Below the pieces are notes generated by a model. The model did not search any database. It had not been told where the DNA came from and saw only the letters and a program-made list of their open reading frames with translations. From positions 88,591 to 152,590 of the forward strand of contig CAVRRJ010000004.1 in the NCBI GenBank assembly GCA_963723585.1: a stretch of DNA of 64,000 bases, written 5' to 3'. This document shows positions 47,119-59,012 of the stretch, in pieces. How positions within the stretch are numbered: position 1 is the stretch's first letter; every line of letters begins with the position of its first letter. This stretch comes from an uncultured Solirubrobacterales bacterium (lineage in GTDB: Bacteria > Actinomycetota > Thermoleophilia > Solirubrobacterales > Solirubrobacteraceae). A program made the translations under genes and the position numbers.

Positions 47119-50100
47119 CTACCGGCGGCGGCCGGAGGCGAAGCTCATGACCGGAGGGGCGACGGCCCGGAAGTCCTCGGCCTGCTCGGCCCGGCCACGC
47201 CTGACCTGCTCGTCGAGCATCGAGAAGTCCTTGACCTCGGCCAGGATCCGGTCGGGGGCGTCGATCGGTCCCACTCGGTCGACGAGCACGTTGATGGCCC
47301 CTCCGGCAGCGGCAAAGCGCTCGAGCTTGCCCTCGACCAGGATCAGGGGCTCGGTCCGCACGGTGAGCCGGTGTCGCTCATAGACCCTGGGCGGCACGAT
47401 CAGGTTGATCGTCCCGTATTCGTCCTCGAGCAGGATGAAGACGACACCACCGGCGGTCCCCGGTCGCTGCCGCGCCACGACGAGGCCGCCCACCCTGACC
47501 CGGCCTCCGTGCTCGAGGGAGCCGAGCTCGTGGCTCGTCGCCGCGCCGGCCAGGCGCCCGCGCAGCAGGGCCAGGGGATGGGTAGCGGTGGTCAGGCCGG
47601 TGGAGCTGTAATCGGCCAGCATGGCCTCCCATTCACTCAGGGCGCGCAGCTCGGGAGGTGCAGGCAGATCGAGCGGCAGGGCGAGCTGGGTGCCCCCGGG
47701 CACCCGCCGGCCCGGGGACATCACCCCCAGCTGCCAGAGGGCGATTCGCCGGGCCGAGCCGACCATCCGGCTCTCCCCGGCGGCCAGCTCGTCACAGGCA
47801 CCCGACCAGGCCAGCAGCTCCAGGGCCGACGCGCTCGATCCCGCCCGCGAGGCCAGATCGGAGAGGTTGCGAAAGCGCCCGCCCCGCTCCCGGCCTGCCA
47901 CCAAGGCCTGTACCTCCTCGCCCCGGATCCCCCGGACATAGCCCAGCCCGACGCGCACGCGCAGGCCCCGGCGACCCGCTTGCCCGTCATCCGGCTGGGG
48001 AGCCCCGGCCAACCGGGCCTGCGGGCCGGCCAGCTCGATGTCGCACTCGACTCCGCTGTGGTTCACGTCCGGGGCGAGGACCTCGATGCCCCGCCGCTGG
48101 GCCTCGTGGACCAGGGCGTCCGGAGGGTAGAAGCCCATCGGTTGCTCGTTCAGCAGCGAGCAGAGCAGCTCCGGGGTGTAGTGGACACGCAGCCAGGTCG
48201 ATTGGTAGGCCAGCAGCCCGAACGCGGCTCCGTGGGCCTTGGGAAAGCCGAAGCCGGAGAAGCCCTTGACCATCGCGAACACGCGCTCGGCCGTCTCGGC
48301 GTCGACGCCGTGCTTGGCCTGGGCGCCCTGCACGAAACGCTCGTGGTAGGCCTGGATGGCCGTATCCGAGCGCTTGCGGCTCATCGCCCGGCGCAGCCCC
48401 TCGGCCTCTCCGGGGCTGAAGCCGGCAAAGGCGATCGACACCTCGAGCACCTGATCCTGGAAGATGATCGTGCCCAGCGTCTCCCCGAGCACGGCCTCGA
48501 GCGAAGGATGCTCGTAGGGCACCTGGTAGTCGGGCTCGGCCCGCAGCCGCTGGCGGCGCTCGATGTAGGGATTGACCGCCCCACCCTGAATGGGGCCGGG
48601 CCGGACGATGGCCACCTGGATGGTGATGTCCTTGAGCGTCTCGGGCCGGGTGCGGCGCAGGGAAGCCATCTGGGCCCGGCTCTCGATCTGGAAGACCCCG
48701 GTCGTGTCGGCGTTCTGGATGCACTCGTAGGTCGCCGGGTCGTCGTAAGGGATGCGGCTCAGATCGATGCGCTCGCTCCGCGTGCGCGCGACCAGCTCCA
48801 CGCAGCGCTCCACGGCCGAGAGCATCCCCAGCCCGAGCAGGTCGATCTTCAGAAAGCCGGCGTCGGCGCAGGAGTCCTTGTCCCATTGGGCTATCTGCCG
48901 CCCAGCCATCGCGGCCGGAACGATTGGGCAGCATTCGATCAGGGGCCGGGTGGCGATGATCATCCCGCCCGAGTGCTGGCTTAGATGTCGGGGCAAGCCG
49001 TGGGCTTCTGCCGCGAGCTCGGCCAGCCACTCCCAGCGCCCGCTGAGGCCCCGGCCCGTGCTCTGGATGTCCTTTCCCACCTCCCGCGAATCCCAGCCTT
49101 CGCTGCCGCGGGCCACGCGCTCGATCTCCCCGGGGGGCAGGCCCAGCACCTTGCCCAGCTCGCGGATCGCCCCGCGCGCCCGGTAGGTGGGGAAGGCGGC
49201 GACCAGCGCTGAGCGCTCCCGGCCGTAGCGCTCGTGCACGCGGGGGATGAGCTTCTCGCGGATGTCGCGGGGGAAGTCGAGGTCGATGTCGGGCAGCGAG
49301 GTCAGCTCCTCGTTGAGGAAGCGGCCGATCAGCAGCTCATTGGCGATTGGATCGACGTGCGAGAGGCCGGTCAGGTAACAGACGATCGAGGAGACGCTCG
49401 AGCCCCGTCCCCGCCCCGGGGGCAGCAGCGCCCGGGCGCTGTCGGGTCCGCGCACCTCGACGGCGACCTCCCGCGCGAGCTCGAGCATGTCGTGGTGCAG
49501 CAGGAAGAAGCCGGCCAGGCCGAGTGAGTCGATGATCCGCAGCTCCTGCACCAGGCGATCCTGCGCGCGGGCCAGAGCCGCCTTTCCGCCGGCGTGGTAG
49601 CGATCCTTGATCCGCACGGCACAGAGCTCGGTCAGCTTGCGCATGGCCGCCTCGTCCTCGGCGCCCGGATAGCGGTAGCCGAGATCACTGCGCAGGTCGA
49701 AGCGCAGGCCGTCGGCCAACCGGGCGGTCTCGGCCACGGCCTCGGGATGTTCGGCAAACCGCGCCTCCATGTCCTGCGGCGAGACCAGCACGTGGCTGAA
49801 GTTCCCCCGTCGCTGGGGCTCTGAGCCGTCCAGGGTGGAGTGCAGTCGCACGGCCACGAAGGCATCCTGAAGCGGCGCCCGGGCACGGGCATGGGCATGC
49901 ACGTCACCGGTGGCCACGCAGGTCACCTCCAAGCGCCGGGCCAGAGCCTCGAGGCGCCGGTTCCGGGCCCGGTCATCGCGCAGGAACGGGCGCTGGAGCT
50001 CGACCCGCAGCCGCTCGGTGCCGAAGGCCTCACGCAGCCGGCGCAGCGTGGGCTCGTCCTGCACGCCGTGCCGAGCACAGCCGCTCAGGCAGACCAAGCC

Positions 50101-50466
50101 CTCGGCGTGCTCGAGCACGGTCTCGATCGCCGTCCGGGCATCAGCAGCCGGTCCGCCCGGGCGCCCGTCCCGCGTGTGCGCGTGCGCGCGGGTCAAGATG
50201 CGACAGAGATTTGACCATCCCCGGGCATCGGCCACGAGCAGGCCGATGTGGCGCCCGTCGTCCAGGTCAAGCTCAGCGCCGTGAATGGGACGTAGGCCGA
50301 GCGCCCGGGCCGAGACCGCGAATTCCATCGACCCGGAAACCGTGTTGTGATCGGTCAGAGCCAGCGTCCGATGACCGACCTCGAGCGCCGTCGCCACCAG
50401 CTCGTAGGGCAGGGAGACCCCGTCCAGGAATGAGAACGCCGAATGGCAGTGGAGCTCCGTATACAT
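47119..50466 (-). CDS. dnaE2: Error-prone DNA polymerase III alpha (DnaE2/ImuC)
   Basis: ELHCHSAFSFLDG, GRGS, PDIDLDF, QHSGG, KIDLLGL, NEQPMGFY, RQRPGTA; SOS box upstream. Confidence 0.95.
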   Translation of the reverse strand: MYTELHCHSAFSFLDGVSLPYELVATALEVGHRTLALTDHNTVSGSMEFAVSARALGLRPIHGAELDLDDGRHIGLLVADARGWSNLCRILTRAHAHTRDGRPGGPAADARTAIETVLEHAEGLVCLSGCARHGVQDEPTLRRLREAFGTERLRVELQRPFLRDDRARNRRLEALARRLEVTCVATGDVHAHARARAPLQDAFVAVRLHSTLDGSEPQRRGNFSHVLVSPQDMEARFAEHPEAVAETARLADGLRFDLRSDLGYRYPGAEDEAAMRKLTELCAVRIKDRYHAGGKAALARAQDRLVQELRIIDSLGLAGFFLLHHDMLELAREVAVEVRGPDSARALLPPGRGRGSSVSSIVCYLTGLSHVDPIANELLIGRFLNEELTSLPDIDLDFPRDIREKLIPRVHERYGRERSALVAAFPTYRARGAIRELGKVLGLPPGEIERVARGSEGWDSREVGKDIQSTGRGLSGRWEWLAELAAEAHGLPRHLSQHSGGMIIATRPLIECCPIVPAAMAGRQIAQWDKDSCADAGFLKIDLLGLGMLSAVERCVELVARTRSERIDLSRIPYDDPATYECIQNADTTGVFQIESRAQMASLRRTRPETLKDITIQVAIVRPGPIQGGAVNPYIERRQRLRAEPDYQVPYEHPSLEAVLGETLGTIIFQDQVLEVSIAFAGFSPGEAEGLRRAMSRKRSDTAIQAYHERFVQGAQAKHGVDAETAERVFAMVKGFSGFGFPKAHGAAFGLLAYQSTWLRVHYTPELLCSLLNEQPMGFYPPDALVHEAQRRGIEVLAPDVNHSGVECDIELAGPQARLAGAPQPDDGQAGRRGLRVRVGLGYVRGIRGEEVQALVAGRERGGRFRNLSDLASRAGSSASALELLAWSGACDELAAGESRMVGSARRIALWQLGVMSPGRRVPGGTQLALPLDLPAPPELRALSEWEAMLADYSSTGLTTATHPLALLRGRLAGAATSHELGSLEHGGRVRVGGLVVARQRPGTAGGVVFILLEDEYGTINLIVPPRVYERHRLTVRTEPLILVEGKLERFAAAGGAINVLVDRVGPIDAPDRILAEVKDFSMLDEQVRRGRAEQAEDFRAVAPPVMSFASGRRR

Positions 50467-50468
50467 AG

Positions 50469-50482
50469 CGAACATATGTTCG
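50469..50482. promoter_or_regulatory. LexA (SOS) box of dnaE2
   Basis: Perfect CGAAC-ATAT-GTTCG, 2 bp upstream of the ATG. Confidence 0.92.
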
Positions 50483-54425: not shown

Positions 54426-54668
54426 TCAGCGCTGGCGCCACCAGGTTCCCCTGAGGAGATCCCGGAACAGGACCTCGTTGCGCCCGCAGGTGGTGACGAT
54501 CTCCCAATAGTGGCGCCGCAACGGCTTCTCCGTCCACCAGCGGTCCTCGATCAGCCAGGATTCCCGCACAGCGTCGACCGACCGCCCGTCGACGAGCAGC
54601 GGTCGTCCGCCGGGGTTGGCCTCGACGGTGATACGCCGCGGGACGGCCAGGCGTCGAGGGCCGCTCAT
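54426..54668 (-). CDS. Small ImuB C-terminus-like protein (DUF6504-like)
   Basis: ESWLIEDRWW...YWE motif; ATGA overlap with imuB. Confidence 0.75.
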   Translation of the reverse strand: MSGPRRLAVPRRITVEANPGGRPLLVDGRSVDAVRESWLIEDRWWTEKPLRRHYWEIVTTCGRNEVLFRDLLRGTWWRQR

Positions 54669-55912
54669 CCTTCGTAGGGGGCCAGCACGGCTCGCCGCTC
54701 GGGAAAGCGGGAGTCTGGATCAACAGTGAGCACGCGCAGTGCGGCCTCGGGACCAGCCGCTACCCGGGCCTGACGGATCGCCTCGCGCAGCCGAGCGGCG
54801 CGCGCCGCCCCCGGCGCCTCGAGCAGCGCGCGCTGGTCGCTGGCCGGTGGCCCGAAGCGCGCGACGGCCAGCCTGAGCGTCTCCGCCGGAGCGGGCAGCA
54901 GGGCGAGCCGGGGGACCAGGGCCAGACGCATGCGGAGGGAATCCGACAGGGCCTCGCGGAACACGACCTGCTCGCGCCAGGTTCCCCCCTGCTCGACCAG
55001 GACGGCGGAGAGGACCACCGCACGCAGCGTCCGCCCCCTCCGCTCGTGCCGGGCCAGCAGACGATCGATGAGCAGGCCGAGTCCGCGTTCCAGCTGCACC
55101 CCCGATCCCGCTTCGGGAAGCTCGAGGATCTCGCGGAGAAATTCCCCGGGCGGCCGCGGGCTGAGCGCGCTGTCTCCTCCGCTGGCCAGCTTATGGGCCA
55201 GCAGACCGGCCTGCCCGAAGCGATCGGCCAGCGTTGCGGCGGGGAGGGCGGCGAGCTCGCCGAGGGTTCCCACGCCCAGGCGCTCGAGCGCCTCGGGCAG
55301 CTCGGTCAGCGCGGGGCGGGCACGCAGAAGAGCGACGGGCAACGGGGCTAGGTAGGCCCGGGCCAGCGCCCGGCCATCCAACCGCCGTCCGAGTCCCGCC
55401 CGCCTCAAAACGATCTCGGGTCGCCGGGATCGGGCGCGAGTGGCGGCGGCCACGGCGGCGAAGCGCGACGGGGCCACCCCGAAGCGAGCCGGTATGCGCA
55501 GGGCGCGCCGGGCCGCTGCCAGCACTCCGGCCAGCTGCTCGCTCTCATCCCCCGCCGGCGTCCTCCCGCCGTGTAGGCGCAGCAGCCCCCCGGTGTCGAA
55601 GCAGGCCAGGCCCGGGCGCTCAGGCTCCACCGCCGCCCCCATCGATTCCAGCCTGACCAGCAGCCGCTCCCACCGATCCGCAACCCCTGCGGGATCGGGG
55701 GGCACGAGAGTCAGTTCCGGACAGCGCGCCAGGGACTCTCCGAGCCGGAGCCCGGGCCGAACTCCGAACGCCTCGGCGGCCGGCGAGACCTCCCCAACCT
55801 GCTGGGCCCCGCCCGGCTCGGGCGCGAGCGCCGACGGCGCCTGAAGCAGCTCGCTACGGTCGCCGATGGCGGTGGTGAGGGCAAAGCGGGGAAGCAGGAC
55901 GCAGGCGATCAT
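54665..55912 (-). CDS. imuB: ImuB-like Y-family polymerase homologue
   Basis: MIACV, SPAAEAFGVRPG...LARCP, LERLGVGTLGELAAL, RFG; catalytic DE motif not seen. Confidence 0.85.
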   Translation of the reverse strand: MIACVLLPRFALTTAIGDRSELLQAPSALAPEPGGAQQVGEVSPAAEAFGVRPGLRLGESLARCPELTLVPPDPAGVADRWERLLVRLESMGAAVEPERPGLACFDTGGLLRLHGGRTPAGDESEQLAGVLAAARRALRIPARFGVAPSRFAAVAAATRARSRRPEIVLRRAGLGRRLDGRALARAYLAPLPVALLRARPALTELPEALERLGVGTLGELAALPAATLADRFGQAGLLAHKLASGGDSALSPRPPGEFLREILELPEAGSGVQLERGLGLLIDRLLARHERRGRTLRAVVLSAVLVEQGGTWREQVVFREALSDSLRMRLALVPRLALLPAPAETLRLAVARFGPPASDQRALLEAPGAARAARLREAIRQARVAAGPEAALRVLTVDPDSRFPERRAVLAPYEG

Positions 55913-55925
55913 GACGAACGTATGT

Positions 55926-57255
55926 CCTTACTCGATTTGAGTGGATATGTCCGGGTGCAGGGATAACGTGGCCGGACGATGGAAGTCCCTGAGTGCCCGG
56001 TCCCTGAGCACGCGGGTTCGAAGGTGGTTCGGGGTGGCTGGTATGGCAAGGCGCCCCATCGGCGTCAGCGGTGGGTGTGTCGGCCGGTCAACGGGGATGT
56101 CAAGCATCGGTTCACGCCGGTCCTGACGCGTCAGGGGGAGCCGCACCCGTTCTGCGTTGAGTGCTCGACGGGGTTGGAGCCGTGGGAGGGCCAGGCGGGC
56201 GCGCGGGAGTATCGATTCGCGGCCCGTGAGGTCGGCGATGCGTTGGTCTCGGCCGCGCATGGGACGAGCTATCGAGCGGCGGCGGAGATCGCGCGCCAGA
56301 AGGCGAGGCGAGTCCCGCCGCCTAGACCGCGACGGCGTCGCTCGGCCGCCAACGAGGGGCAGCTGGTCGCTAACTGGATCGATGTGTGCAGCGAGCTGGT
56401 GTGCGCGGGGGAGCTGCCTGACCGGTGGCCCGAGACGCTGCTGATCGACAGCCAGAACTTCCGGGTCAAAAGCGGCCCAAACGCTGGGCGTGGCTTTCAT
56501 GTTTTCGCGGCGGTCGGGCGCGATCCAGGCCAGCCGGGTCGATGGGCGTCGACCCCGCGGGTGTGGCGTGTTGCGCCCTATGCGCACCGCGATCAGGCGG
56601 CCTGGGAGGCGTTCCTCGGCGCGCTTGACGGGGCTCCCAGAGTGATCGTGACCGACGCCGACCACGCCCTGGCCCTGGCGGTCAAAAGCGTGTTCGCCGA
56701 GGCCACCGTCGAGCATCGCCTGTGCGAATGGCACCTGGGACGCAAGCTGCGATACCACCTCCCTGAGGAGCTGCTCGCTGACGTCGGGCATCCGGTCACA
56801 CGCGCGCTGCCGGACGCGTTTCGCAGCCCACAAGCTTGGAGCGCGCTGGACTACGCAATCCGAGAAGAGCACACCTCCGGTGTGCACGGGCCGCTGGCGC
56901 TCGCGGTCAAGTGGCTGGAGACCTACGGCCAGACCGCCAAGGCCCAGACGATCACCCGCAACCCGTTCGGGATCAACTCGACCGGCCCAGTCGAGCAGGT
57001 CCTGCGCGAGATCGACCGCCGGATCGGCGACCGCGTCGGCTCGTTCACCAACCGCACCCGCCTGGCCAAGCTGCTTGACCTCATGACCCTCGACATGCAC
57101 GGCAAAGCCGACGGGCGCGAGTGGGCCGACCGCCTGCGCGAACGCCTCTACCTCGCCGGCGGGCGCCCCGCCAACCAGCGACCACACGACGACCGCAAAG
57201 GCGTCCACTCGCTGTTTGTCTGAGGGCGAAAACGTATCCATCCGAATCGAGTAGG
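55926..57255 (+). mobile_element. Insertion sequence (~1330 bp) inserted in the imuB SOS box
   Basis: Terminal IR cores 55929-55950 and 57232-57253 (18/22 identity); direct repeat AACGTATGT at 55917-55925 and 57256-57264; single transposase ORF. Confidence 0.88.
55979..57223 (+). CDS. MULE/IS256-superfamily-like DDE transposase with N-terminal Zn-ribbon
   Basis: LLIDS (D), IVTDAD (D), CEWH (CxxH), STGPVEQ (E); N-terminal CPVPEH...C...H and CVEC. Confidence 0.85.
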   Translation: MEVPECPVPEHAGSKVVRGGWYGKAPHRRQRWVCRPVNGDVKHRFTPVLTRQGEPHPFCVECSTGLEPWEGQAGAREYRFAAREVGDALVSAAHGTSYRAAAEIARQKARRVPPPRPRRRRSAANEGQLVANWIDVCSELVCAGELPDRWPETLLIDSQNFRVKSGPNAGRGFHVFAAVGRDPGQPGRWASTPRVWRVAPYAHRDQAAWEAFLGALDGAPRVIVTDADHALALAVKSVFAEATVEHRLCEWHLGRKLRYHLPEELLADVGHPVTRALPDAFRSPQAWSALDYAIREEHTSGVHGPLALAVKWLETYGQTAKAQTITRNPFGINSTGPVEQVLREIDRRIGDRVGSFTNRTRLAKLLDLMTLDMHGKADGREWADRLRERLYLAGGRPANQRPHDDRKGVHSLFV

Positions 57256-57267
57256 AACGTATGTTCG
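57254..57267. promoter_or_regulatory. LexA box regenerated at the right IS junction
   Basis: GGAAC-GTAT-GTTCG keeps the GAAC-N4-GTTC core. Confidence 0.75.
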
Positions 57268-57341
57268 CATACGGTGCGGACGGCCTGCCTCCCGGGGAGC
57301 GCGAATGTTTCGTCCGGAGCGTCGGGCACGATGCTCGCCCC

Positions 57342-59012
57342 GTGCCACCTCTCCGTCCCCCCACCAACCGCTCCGGCCTGCGCGAATGGCAGCGTCGCGC
57401 GATGATGGCGATGGCCGCCTGGCGCGAGGGCCCGTTCCTGCTCTCAGCCGCGCCCGGGTCCGGCAAGACCCGACCCGCGCTCGAGTTCGCCCGTGAACAG
57501 CTGAGGAGCGGCGCGGCCAGCGCCGTCGTCGTGGCCTGTCCGACGGCGCCGCTCACTCGCCAGTGGGCCCGGGCGGCCGACGGGATCGGCCTCGACCTCG
57601 CCCCCGATACCGGCACGCCGCGCGCACCGAGCGGCTTCCACGGGGTCGCGGTCACCTACGCGCGGATCGCCAAAGCGCCGCTGCGCTGGGCCGAGGCGCT
57701 ACCTCGCCGCGTCCTGGTCATCGCCGACGAGGCCCACCATCTCGGTGAGGATCTGAGCTGGGGGGTGGGATTCACCCGGGCCTTCGGCTCGGACGCCCGC
57801 TGGCTGCTGCTGTCCGGTACCCCGTTTCGCTCCGACGCGACCCCGATCCCGGGCGTCCGCTACGACAGGGAGGGCCTGGCCGAGCCCGACGTGACCTACA
57901 ACTACGCCGAAGCTGTGGCCGACCGGATCTGCCGTCCGGTGTGCTTCGTGGCCTACGACGGGACGCTGTCCTGGCGCAGCGGCGAGGACGTGATCGAATC
58001 GAGCTTCGAGACCGTGCTCAGCACGCGTGAGGCCAGCCGCCGCTACCGCACGGCCATCTCCACCGAACTGCCCGATGGGCTGCTCCGCATTCTGCGCGAA
58101 GCCGACGCCCGGCTCCGGACGCTTCGCGGGCAGGGCCACCGCGATGCCGGGGGGCTGGTCATAGCCGCCGACTCCGAGCACGCCCGCCGGATCGCCCAGC
58201 TGCTCAAGCAGGTGACCGGACGGGTACCCCTGGTCGTCCTGCACGCGGAGCCACGGGCGGCGGCCAAGCTCGCTGCGTTCACCCGCTCCACCGATCCCTG
58301 GATCGTGGCCGTGAACATGGTCTCCGAAGGGGTGGACATCCCCCGACTTCGAGTCGGGGTCTACGCCACGGCGGCCAAGACGCCACTCATCTTCCGCCAG
58401 ATCGTGGGCCGCTTCGTGCGGACGACGCCGGATCAACCGCCCGGTCCGGTCGAGCCGAGCTGGCTCTACGTACCCGCTGACCCGGTGCTGCGTGACCATG
58501 CCGCCACGATCGAGCAGGAGGTGCGGCGCGCCCTACGCGCCCCGGGCGAACCGACTGAGGCGCCGGAGCTGGAGCGCGCTGCCCGCCGCGAGTCCGAGCG
58601 CGGGGCCGAGATCGAGTTCGTCCCCCTGGCCGCCGACGTGGCACCCCAGTTGTCGCTGTTCGGAGCGCCGTCCCCAGGTCCGCGGCCGGTAGGGGTCGCG
58701 CCCTGGGCCCGGGCCCCGCTCGGTGCCACGGGCGCCAGGGGGGCAAGGGGCGCACCGGTCGATCCGGAGTCCAGCTCTCCGGCGCGCGGGCGCGAGGAGC
58801 GCGAGATTCCGGCGTTTGAGCGGCGAGCGCGGCTGCGCGACGAGCGACACCGGCTCGTCTCCGAGGTGCGCCGGCGTGACGGAACCAGTCATCGGGAGAT
58901 CAACGCCTGGCTGAATCGCAAGTTGGGCATCACGAGCGTCGAGCAGGCCACCCTGGCCGAGCTCGAGCGTTCGGTCGAGCTGTTGGTACGCAAGCTGACC
59001 GCCCGGCGCTGA
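57342..59012 (+). CDS. SF2 DEAD/DEAH-box (ResIII-like) helicase; start uncertain (57261 or 57342)
   Basis: LREWQ, APGSGKT, DEAHH, SGTPFRSD, SEGVDIP, QIVGRFVR. Confidence 0.9.
   Translation: MPPLRPPTNRSGLREWQRRAMMAMAAWREGPFLLSAAPGSGKTRPALEFAREQLRSGAASAVVVACPTAPLTRQWARAADGIGLDLAPDTGTPRAPSGFHGVAVTYARIAKAPLRWAEALPRRVLVIADEAHHLGEDLSWGVGFTRAFGSDARWLLLSGTPFRSDATPIPGVRYDREGLAEPDVTYNYAEAVADRICRPVCFVAYDGTLSWRSGEDVIESSFETVLSTREASRRYRTAISTELPDGLLRILREADARLRTLRGQGHRDAGGLVIAADSEHARRIAQLLKQVTGRVPLVVLHAEPRAAAKLAAFTRSTDPWIVAVNMVSEGVDIPRLRVGVYATAAKTPLIFRQIVGRFVRTTPDQPPGPVEPSWLYVPADPVLRDHAATIEQEVRRALRAPGEPTEAPELERAARRESERGAEIEFVPLAADVAPQLSLFGAPSPGPRPVGVAPWARAPLGATGARGARGAPVDPESSSPARGREEREIPAFERRARLRDERHRLVSEVRRRDGTSHREINAWLNRKLGITSVEQATLAELERSVELLVRKLTARR

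Follow-up and report, generated by a model that had tools for sequence, protein, structure and literature searches.

An insertion sequence family found at the centres of LexA boxes, with a predicted link to the host DNA damage response

Introduction

The target preferences known for Mutator-type transposases, as given in the available text of PMC3942029, are the edges of sigma-A promoters and the A/T motif of ISH6; within the first group TnGBS, ISLre2 and ISKra4 elements insert 15-17 bp upstream of the sigma-A -35 element, leaving the promoter whole. IS256-family elements move by a copy-out/paste-in route in which a promoter arises where the two ends are joined over a spacer of 6-8 bp (PMC7780238, in the part accessible). 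The transposase promoters of ISCR1, ISCR2 and ISCR8 include a LexA box, according to the accessible portion of a preprint (bioRxiv 10.1101/2025.11.21.689736), and the mutasome of mycobacteria is placed under both PafBC and LexA in the available sections of PMC8682763.

Here we describe an insertion sequence (IS) that splits the LexA box of an imuB-like gene in an uncultured Solirubrobacterales bacterium, within a 64,000-nucleotide stretch of contig CAVRRJ010000004.1 that was analysed as a whole (the window). We consider it fairly probable that the element belongs to a family inserting almost only into the centres of LexA boxes (CGAAC-N4-GTTCG), that the palindrome is read by the transposase and that movement is induced by DNA damage. 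A search of the literature, covering mostly open-access papers without their supplements, returned no published IS that uses a repressor operator as its target and no PafBC-driven transposase; the element tables in the supplement of PMC3942029, outside that search, could contain a relative. New beyond an earlier note on this DNA are the rebuilding of the box by the right end, the copy of a promoter motif in the element ends and the predicted PafBC-type promoter of the transposase.

Results

The imuB insertion and its target duplication

The element is a Mutator-superfamily insertion sequence of an IS group so far without a name, present as one copy in its own genome (assembly 74% complete). 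In the 8-bp register it measures 1,331 bp, and its transposase ORF lies between the imuB-like gene on the minus strand and a superfamily 2 helicase gene. The features of the locus are as follows.

55926..57256, plus strand: insertion sequence, delimited by its junctions and inverted repeats; contigs of other samples and loose ends stop at the box halves
55918..55925, plus strand: left copy of the 8-bp target duplication, the LexA box centre (junction reading)
57257..57264, plus strand: right copy of the 8-bp target duplication (junction reading)
55926..55950, plus strand: left inverted repeat, CC-type, 19/25 identical to the right repeat; rebuilds neither box nor promoter motif
57232..57256, minus strand: right inverted repeat, giving the outer bases of the rebuilt LexA box (junction and repeat alignment)
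55915..55928, no strand: left remnant of the imuB LexA box, with one core mismatch (box comparison)
57254..57267, no strand: rebuilt LexA box at the right junction, with a perfect GAAC-N4-GTTC core (box comparison)
55979..57223, plus strand: transposase, 414 aa, with a Cys/His-rich N-terminus, a helical domain and an RNase H core
54665..55912, minus strand: imuB-like Y-family protein, ORF intact (PF00817)
57342..59012, plus strand: superfamily 2 helicase-like gene, likely start GTG at 57342 (ResIII/DEAD/Helicase_C)
47119..50475, minus strand: dnaE2, 5 kb from the element
50469..50482, no strand: dnaE2 LexA box, intact, an unoccupied target-type site (box comparison)

The earlier note is confirmed on both junctions, the repeat, the 414-aa ORF, the ATG of imuB (55912) and the dnaE2 box, which is intact at 50469-50482. 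The note had also read a 9-bp target duplication; the duplication itself stands, with 8 bp as its likelier length, which puts the palindrome at its centre and the element end at 57256. In this register the 25-bp inverted repeats align without a gap and the ends of TCC-type relatives are symmetric, and an outgroup copy (L016) carries a clear 8-bp duplication, all of which argue for 8 bp. Symmetry in the TCC-end relatives is obtained only in the 8-bp or a 10-bp register, and the CC subtype of the window excludes the latter. A 9-bp duplication is possible because position 3 of the target is A in almost every site, and this register keeps a terminal C at both ends of the window copy. A further reading, a degenerate 14-bp duplication of the whole box, is rejected: among near-identical copies in one genome (L090-L094) the central four bases vary between copies but are the same to the left and right of any one copy.

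In contigs of runs X1 and X5 window position 55949 is joined to 57233. The junction is tentatively read as that of a probable short, non-autonomous derivative, in which the two ends and 67 other letters add up to about 115 bp. Its depth in X5 is 532, against tens for internal parts, and its sides span fewer than 30 letters.

The transposase and its relatives

The RNase H core is predicted to contain D157, D226 and E339 together with C249xxH252, and D157, D226, H252 and E339 are invariant or nearly so in an alignment of 63 sequences. The structure model (pLDDT 75, with the N-terminal 80 residues modelled at low confidence) shows strands at 153-225 and a helical insert, the 113 aa between D2 and E falling within the 99-138 aa helical insert that defines the RNase H-like DDE core of transposases of the prokaryotic Mutator superfamily (p-MULT). 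The 25-bp inverted repeats and the duplication of 8 or 9 bp likewise lie within the p-MULT ranges (18-39 bp and 8-9 bp). C249xxH252, whose histidine is invariant, follows D226 by 23 aa, against 11-19 aa after D2 for the p-MULT C/DxxH, and most ends start with T in the 8-bp register, against a terminal cytosine in p-MULT; in the 9-bp register the window's subtype has C at both ends.

The closest fold is that of the ISCth4 transposase (Foldseek E 3.6e-9; Z 16.6, rmsd 7.8, 275 residues aligned), at 17% identity. Pfam MULE and Transposase_mut both match the window transposase below threshold, and are found in 23/63 and 19/63 of the wider relatives, respectively. Together, the ISCth4 fold match, the DDE core and the sub-threshold Pfam matches bear out the placement in the IS256/Mutator superfamily that the earlier note had proposed. 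The window transposase stays under every NCBIfam IS cut-off: the top score is with ISH6 (NF041731, 32.9 bits against 240), followed by IS256 (NF033543, 26.5 against 150) and ISLre2 (11.5 against 200). The IS1249 model (NF033544) gives no match for the window protein, and the relatives reach at most 22.4 bits against a cut-off of 300.

Near homologues numbered 249 among the candidates scored, and the wider search returned 1,399 representatives at E 0.001; they are annotated without an IS name or as 'hypothetical' or 'transposase'. Close relatives with a named host come from Solirubrobacterales and Thermoleophilaceae, with two exceptions, one unclassified actinobacterial bin and one small Dormiibacterota contig. 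The 1.6-kb contig of locus L088, assigned to a Dormiibacterota bin and possibly mis-binned, is the only genome-collection locus outside Actinomycetota; its element is 73% identical and sits at a dnaE2-type box. Some match was found in 15/401 family genomes, many of these being fragments, and in a 401-genome sample of the phylum the matches outside Thermoleophilia were weak (about 41-52 bits) apart from one 109-bit fragment. Viral contigs yielded no relative and no end motif (the broad alignment being too diverged for that scan), and plasmids no match. In the tree the box-targeting members are spread throughout and the non-targeting relatives form long branches.

Target choice across the family

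Protein similarity brought in 111 loci, 109 with a usable match, from which 3 duplicates were removed. Ends were placed by a profile of repeat positions 4-22 with the box excluded; the profile was trained on ends already seen and favours that end type. No junction could be read at 15 loci: 3 have outgroup copies whose ends differ, in 1 the copy is truncated and 11 are partial or lack a recognisable end. At the other 91 loci AC-N4-GTTC reads outward from the element at 130/146 junctions, against a background of 1.0e-4, and within one mismatch at 138/146, with the outer G present at 124; these counts are of junctions, which are not independent events. The earlier note had proposed from one insertion that the family may target LexA operators and had suggested scoring the flanks of homologues for CGAAC-N4-GTTCG. 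Given this strong enrichment, together with the empty sites and SOS-gene neighbours described below, we regard LexA-box targeting across the family as very nearly certain, judging from the junction sequences.

Of the eight junctions without a box, five belong to relatives whose terminal bases differ, two are damaged ends and one is a decayed tandem. Relatives L054, L060, L066, L070 and L075 (39-51% identity) have the terminal bases AGGT, ACGT, AGGC or CCGC, and their flanks are not LexA boxes. The targeting members form 39 clusters at 90% identity and reach down to 40% (55 near-full-length proteins). The five near-identical copies L090-L094 occupy five different boxes of one genome, each with a perfect duplication, and three GAAC-RYRY-GTTC sites in that genome are still free, one of them a perfect 14-mer. 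Across the family the 8-bp duplication is perfect in 13/21 genome-assembly loci and imperfect in 8/21; in metagenome loci, which often combine the flanks of separate copies, it is perfect in 8/36. When 331 genomes were searched for the end motif, 15 new matches appeared; 10 adjoin an exact box, 1 a box with one mismatch and 4 no box, and in one genome 7/8 new end matches were exact. Contigs from other samples break just outside the box halves.

The duplicated target has the consensus AC-RYRY-GT. An RYRY spacer occurs in 112/130 targets, against 15/38 of all cores in the host genome. The outer G is present in 124/129 cases at targets, against 20/28 half-sites of the RYRY boxes belonging to the host itself. 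The flank of outgroup elements is palindromic too, reading TA-N8-TA at 7/9 ends (three unlinked chance matches left out), which differs by one base from the GA-N8-TC of the LexA-box family.

Several side observations concern the elements themselves. The outgroup copies L003/L016, L147, L176, L177 and L007 have CCCC-type ends, and in several outgroup elements a cGTCcg-N10-xAxxxT promoter is visible by eye. Tandems of two ends separated by 8 bp occur at L026, L050 and L058 and may be second insertions or assembly artefacts; p-MULT elements form circular intermediates with a spacer of 6-10 bp, and these tandems were the only arrangement of that kind among the loci, no circle being seen. Five box-targeting elements (L055, L063, L079, L008 and L058) are 300-1,000 bp longer after the transposase, possibly carrying cargo, and in L109 some 1.3 kb interrupt the transposase. 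End-like motifs, single or paired, at L260/L267 (G002:C45:72235-72310) and L203 (G1183:C3:346811), with neither a box nor a transposase end nearby, are possibly decayed copies.

The target is the LexA operator of the host lineage

The host encodes LexA, and the box motif lies upstream of its lexA, dinB, dnaE2 and uvrA genes. Within the class it precedes 19/19 parsed lexA genes (11/30 were not parsed by the pattern). By these sequence comparisons the target motif is the LexA operator of the host lineage. The empty imuB-helicase site that the earlier note suggested seeking in relatives exists: an intact core beside the imuB start is found in 28/29 IS-free loci of the genus, the exception being L133, and the nearest relative retains the empty imuB-box-helicase arrangement, so that the box predates the insertion. 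Two of these 29 loci, L132 and L133, come from the unpublished genomes G424 and G428.

Of 87 loci, 27 have in a flank the orthologue of a gene belonging to one of 19 host boxes, frequently with the offset unchanged, and the neighbours of the IS include imuB, dinB, dnaE2 and uvrA. Pfam matches on 182 flank ORFs include Y-family polymerases, PHP, UvrA, radical SAM and DUF222, most of the ORFs having no match; PD-(D/E)XK_5 and HTH genes are among the matches of the flanks as well. Beyond the textbook SOS set, recurrent LexA-box genes of this lineage, seen at G000:C2:190278, C3:943138, C3:373777 and C3:1984603 and at orthologous target sites, are a radical SAM gene, a DUF347 region and a DUF1015 region.

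The element ends carry a promoter motif and rebuild the box

The full box core is rebuilt at 61/66 right junctions, and at left junctions rebuilding depends on the subtype (39/41 for TC-type ends, 0/31 for CC-type). The earlier proposal that the terminal GG rebuilds a GAAC-N4-GTTC core holds at the right junction of the window copy and fails at the left, where one mismatch remains. The note's further suggestion, that LexA may bind the ends and thereby link mobility to DNA damage, would in the window's subtype have a rebuilt box at the right end only.

In IS-free imuB promoters CGGAYG lies 13-18 bases past the position of the duplication (columns conserved in 22-25/28). On the gene strand the reading is cGTCcg and, after ten bases, gAacaT, in agreement with the PafBC consensus tGTCgg(N10)tA(N3)T given in the available part of PMC8635444, the form here being cGTCcg. 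The ends of the element carry the motif at its native offset in 60/66 right ends and 36/72 left ends, as an ATC variant where PafBC reads GTC; the ATC variant is found in 6/28 native promoters. In the target flanks the upstream motif stands at the fixed offset in 36/129 cases, against 0-3 at most shifts, the self-overlapping shifts +4 and +8 giving 13 and 9. Among two-sided loci with matching duplications it is found on neither side in 16/35. A second promoter class is seen at L012, L021, L032, L074, L084, L091 and L095, where a TTGAC-type hexamer 9 nt from the duplication replaces the PafBC-type motif. Four promoter features were placed in the window.

57239..57260, plus strand: predicted outward promoter from the right end, CATCCG-10 nt-GAACGT, spaced as the native IS-free imuB motif
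57277..57282, minus strand: native imuB upstream promoter motif, CGTCCG on the imuB strand, conserved in IS-free relatives
55948..55969, plus strand: predicted PafBC-type transposase promoter, TGTCCG-10 nt-TAACGT, 9 nt before the ATG, with conserved spacing
57311..57332, plus strand: predicted PafBC-type promoter of the helicase gene, with no LexA box; motif also in L113, L115 and L118

In the window copy the non-rebuilding left end faces imuB, so that, as far as the arrangement of motifs indicates, imuB is likely to be cut off from its own promoter, unless transcripts cross the element. The native imuB promoter motif is now 1.3 kb from the gene, to the right of the element and directed into it; no intrinsic terminator was detected there, and no sigma-70-type promoter at 55800-57400. 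The CC-type elements show no orientation bias towards rebuilding (6 vs 4).

A predicted PafBC-type promoter precedes the transposase

The two-part motif GTC-N2-N10-xAxxxT precedes the transposase in 47/74 distinct upstream regions, against 0-4 at other spacings, and is missing from the other 27/74. Its 10-nt spacing is kept in elements in which the distance from the end changes (L058, L063, L064, L068 and L090). In the host the same type of motif precedes recA, radA and ruvC as well as dinB, rmuC and an HD nuclease gene, and is absent upstream of uvrB. Genome-wide it is weakly enriched (21/600 vs 3-15 at other spacings; 12 vs 4-10 in a separate count) and also stands at genes outside repair, a guaB-like gene and ppx. 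TCCRTCCG occurs at 319 sites across the genome, a list that was set aside as not informative unless the -10 part is included.

The host encodes a fused PafBC-like protein with two WYL domains; its gene (L143:922-3138, G000:C2) directly follows the HD-domain nuclease gene with the PafBC-type promoter. Upstream of recA (G000:C3:931830) the motif is present with no LexA box within 260 bp, and at imuB, dinB and dnaE2 motif and box are both present. The transposase promoter fits the consensus of the PafBC damage activator, and the element is predicted to be switched on under DNA damage.

Discussion

The findings can be arranged in a cycle of six steps. Firstly, DNA damage would activate host PafBC, which would turn on the transposase promoter. 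Secondly, cleavage of LexA would free both the target boxes and the rebuilt box at the element end. The element might then be copied out as a circle, by analogy with IS256, its ends joined across a spacer taken from the box core, and a transposase dimer would cut the target palindrome with an 8-bp stagger, in either orientation. After insertion the end beside the host gene would restore an operator together with a -26/-10-like promoter, nearly always at the right end and at the left end only in the TC subtype; insertion would then often cost little. Finally, LexA would rebind, covering the element end again.

LexA contacts both half-sites of its box, and Ty3 is delivered to its targets by TFIIIB, which offers a parallel for a transposase that binds LexA, or a LexA fragment, on the operator and is delivered to the box in this way. 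The targets do track functional boxes, with RYRY spacers in 112/130, and the neighbours at 27/87 loci are orthologues of host LexA-box genes. The RYRY bias, however, follows functional LexA boxes in a way that fits guidance by LexA or the loss of insertions in coding sequence equally well, and it does not distinguish direct readout from delivery by LexA. Against delivery by LexA, the cuts fall inside the half-sites that LexA covers, the palindrome targeted by the outgroup elements is related but differs in one base, and at targets the outer G is kept more strictly than in host boxes. For these reasons direct readout of the palindrome by the transposase is favoured and guidance by LexA appears unlikely; the end-to-end tandems with an 8-bp spacer were also counted for direct readout.

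Alternatively, insertion could be directed by the promoter with its upstream motif, as the Mutator precedent in the available text of PMC3942029 would allow, and the motif does stand at a fixed distance in 36/129 flanks, resembling the element's own end. This explanation is rather improbable, since 16/35 two-sided loci with matching duplications lack the motif on both sides, promoters with the motif and no box (recA, ruvC, radA, helicase) were not seen as targets, 138/146 junctions have a box within one mismatch, and both orientations occur. Its extreme form, in which the target must resemble a whole end, was rejected because the upstream motif is missing at many targets.

Targeting could also be real without control by damage, if the motifs were ordinary sequences or mere transposase-binding sites and the element moved regardless of damage. 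The PafBC-type motif is only weakly enriched in the genome, and the motif in the ends sits where subterminal transposase binding is expected (PMC7780238, in the part accessible). The two-part motif nevertheless keeps its exact 10-nt spacing in 47/74 diverged elements and matches the host recA promoter, which makes independence from damage distinctly improbable. That there is no targeting at all, with broad insertion surviving only in LexA boxes or the box halves being part of the element, is scarcely credible in view of the 130/146 junctions against a background of 1e-4, the spacers, which vary among copies of a single genome, and the intact box found at the corresponding position in IS-free relatives, even though most metagenome loci have mismatched flanks (8/36 perfect).

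A broader reading is more tentative, and could as easily fall as stand. The transposon may be wired into both damage circuits of its host, PafBC turning on the transposase and the release of LexA opening targets and ends, while its inverted repeats may have evolved into copies of SOS-promoter halves (activator element plus operator half-site). Such an element would hide in the SOS regulon, could fill most LexA boxes of a genome and could rewire or silence mutagenesis genes such as imuB. In carriers a large share of the SOS regulon is struck (one genome has five copies and three free RYRY boxes), which could alter mutation rates and repair. The family offers a DDE transposase of one protein whose target spans 14 bp. 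The evolution of target choice can be tested directly in it (TA-N8-TA in the outgroup vs GA-N8-TC in the family), as can the idea that the host damage response sets the time of transposition through an activator and a repressor. The insertion sites also map the LexA regulons of uncultured Thermoleophilia.

With the IS256 family and ISCth4 (p-MULT 1) the element has in common a single ORF, terminal repeats, an 8-bp duplication and promoter parts in its ends (available parts of PMC7780238 and PMC3942029). IS256 is described there as inserting at random or in A/T-rich DNA, whereas the present family uses one 14-bp palindrome, and its transposase has an extra Cys/His-rich N-terminus relative to IS256 and ISCth4. 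The ISH6 family (p-MULT 2) has a conserved 8-bp palindromic duplication, given as AANATNTT in the text of PMC3942029 that is available; the AC-RYRY-GT of the present family is a different consensus, its target reaches 3 bp past the duplication and, unlike the A/T motif of ISH6, it is a repressor operator. TnGBS, ISLre2 and ISKra4 resemble the family in being Mutator transposases that choose regulatory DNA, whereas the present family cuts the centre of the operator, in both orientations, and rebuilds it. ISCR1, ISCR2 and ISCR8 share with the element an expression of the transposase tied to DNA damage, which for the element is a prediction; no operator targeting is described for them in the accessible portion of the preprint, and the element has a predicted activator promoter of the PafBC type. 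The element acts like an IS256-type element with a strict target, a member of the Mutator superfamily that falls outside the IS256, ISH6, ISLre2 and IS1249 models.
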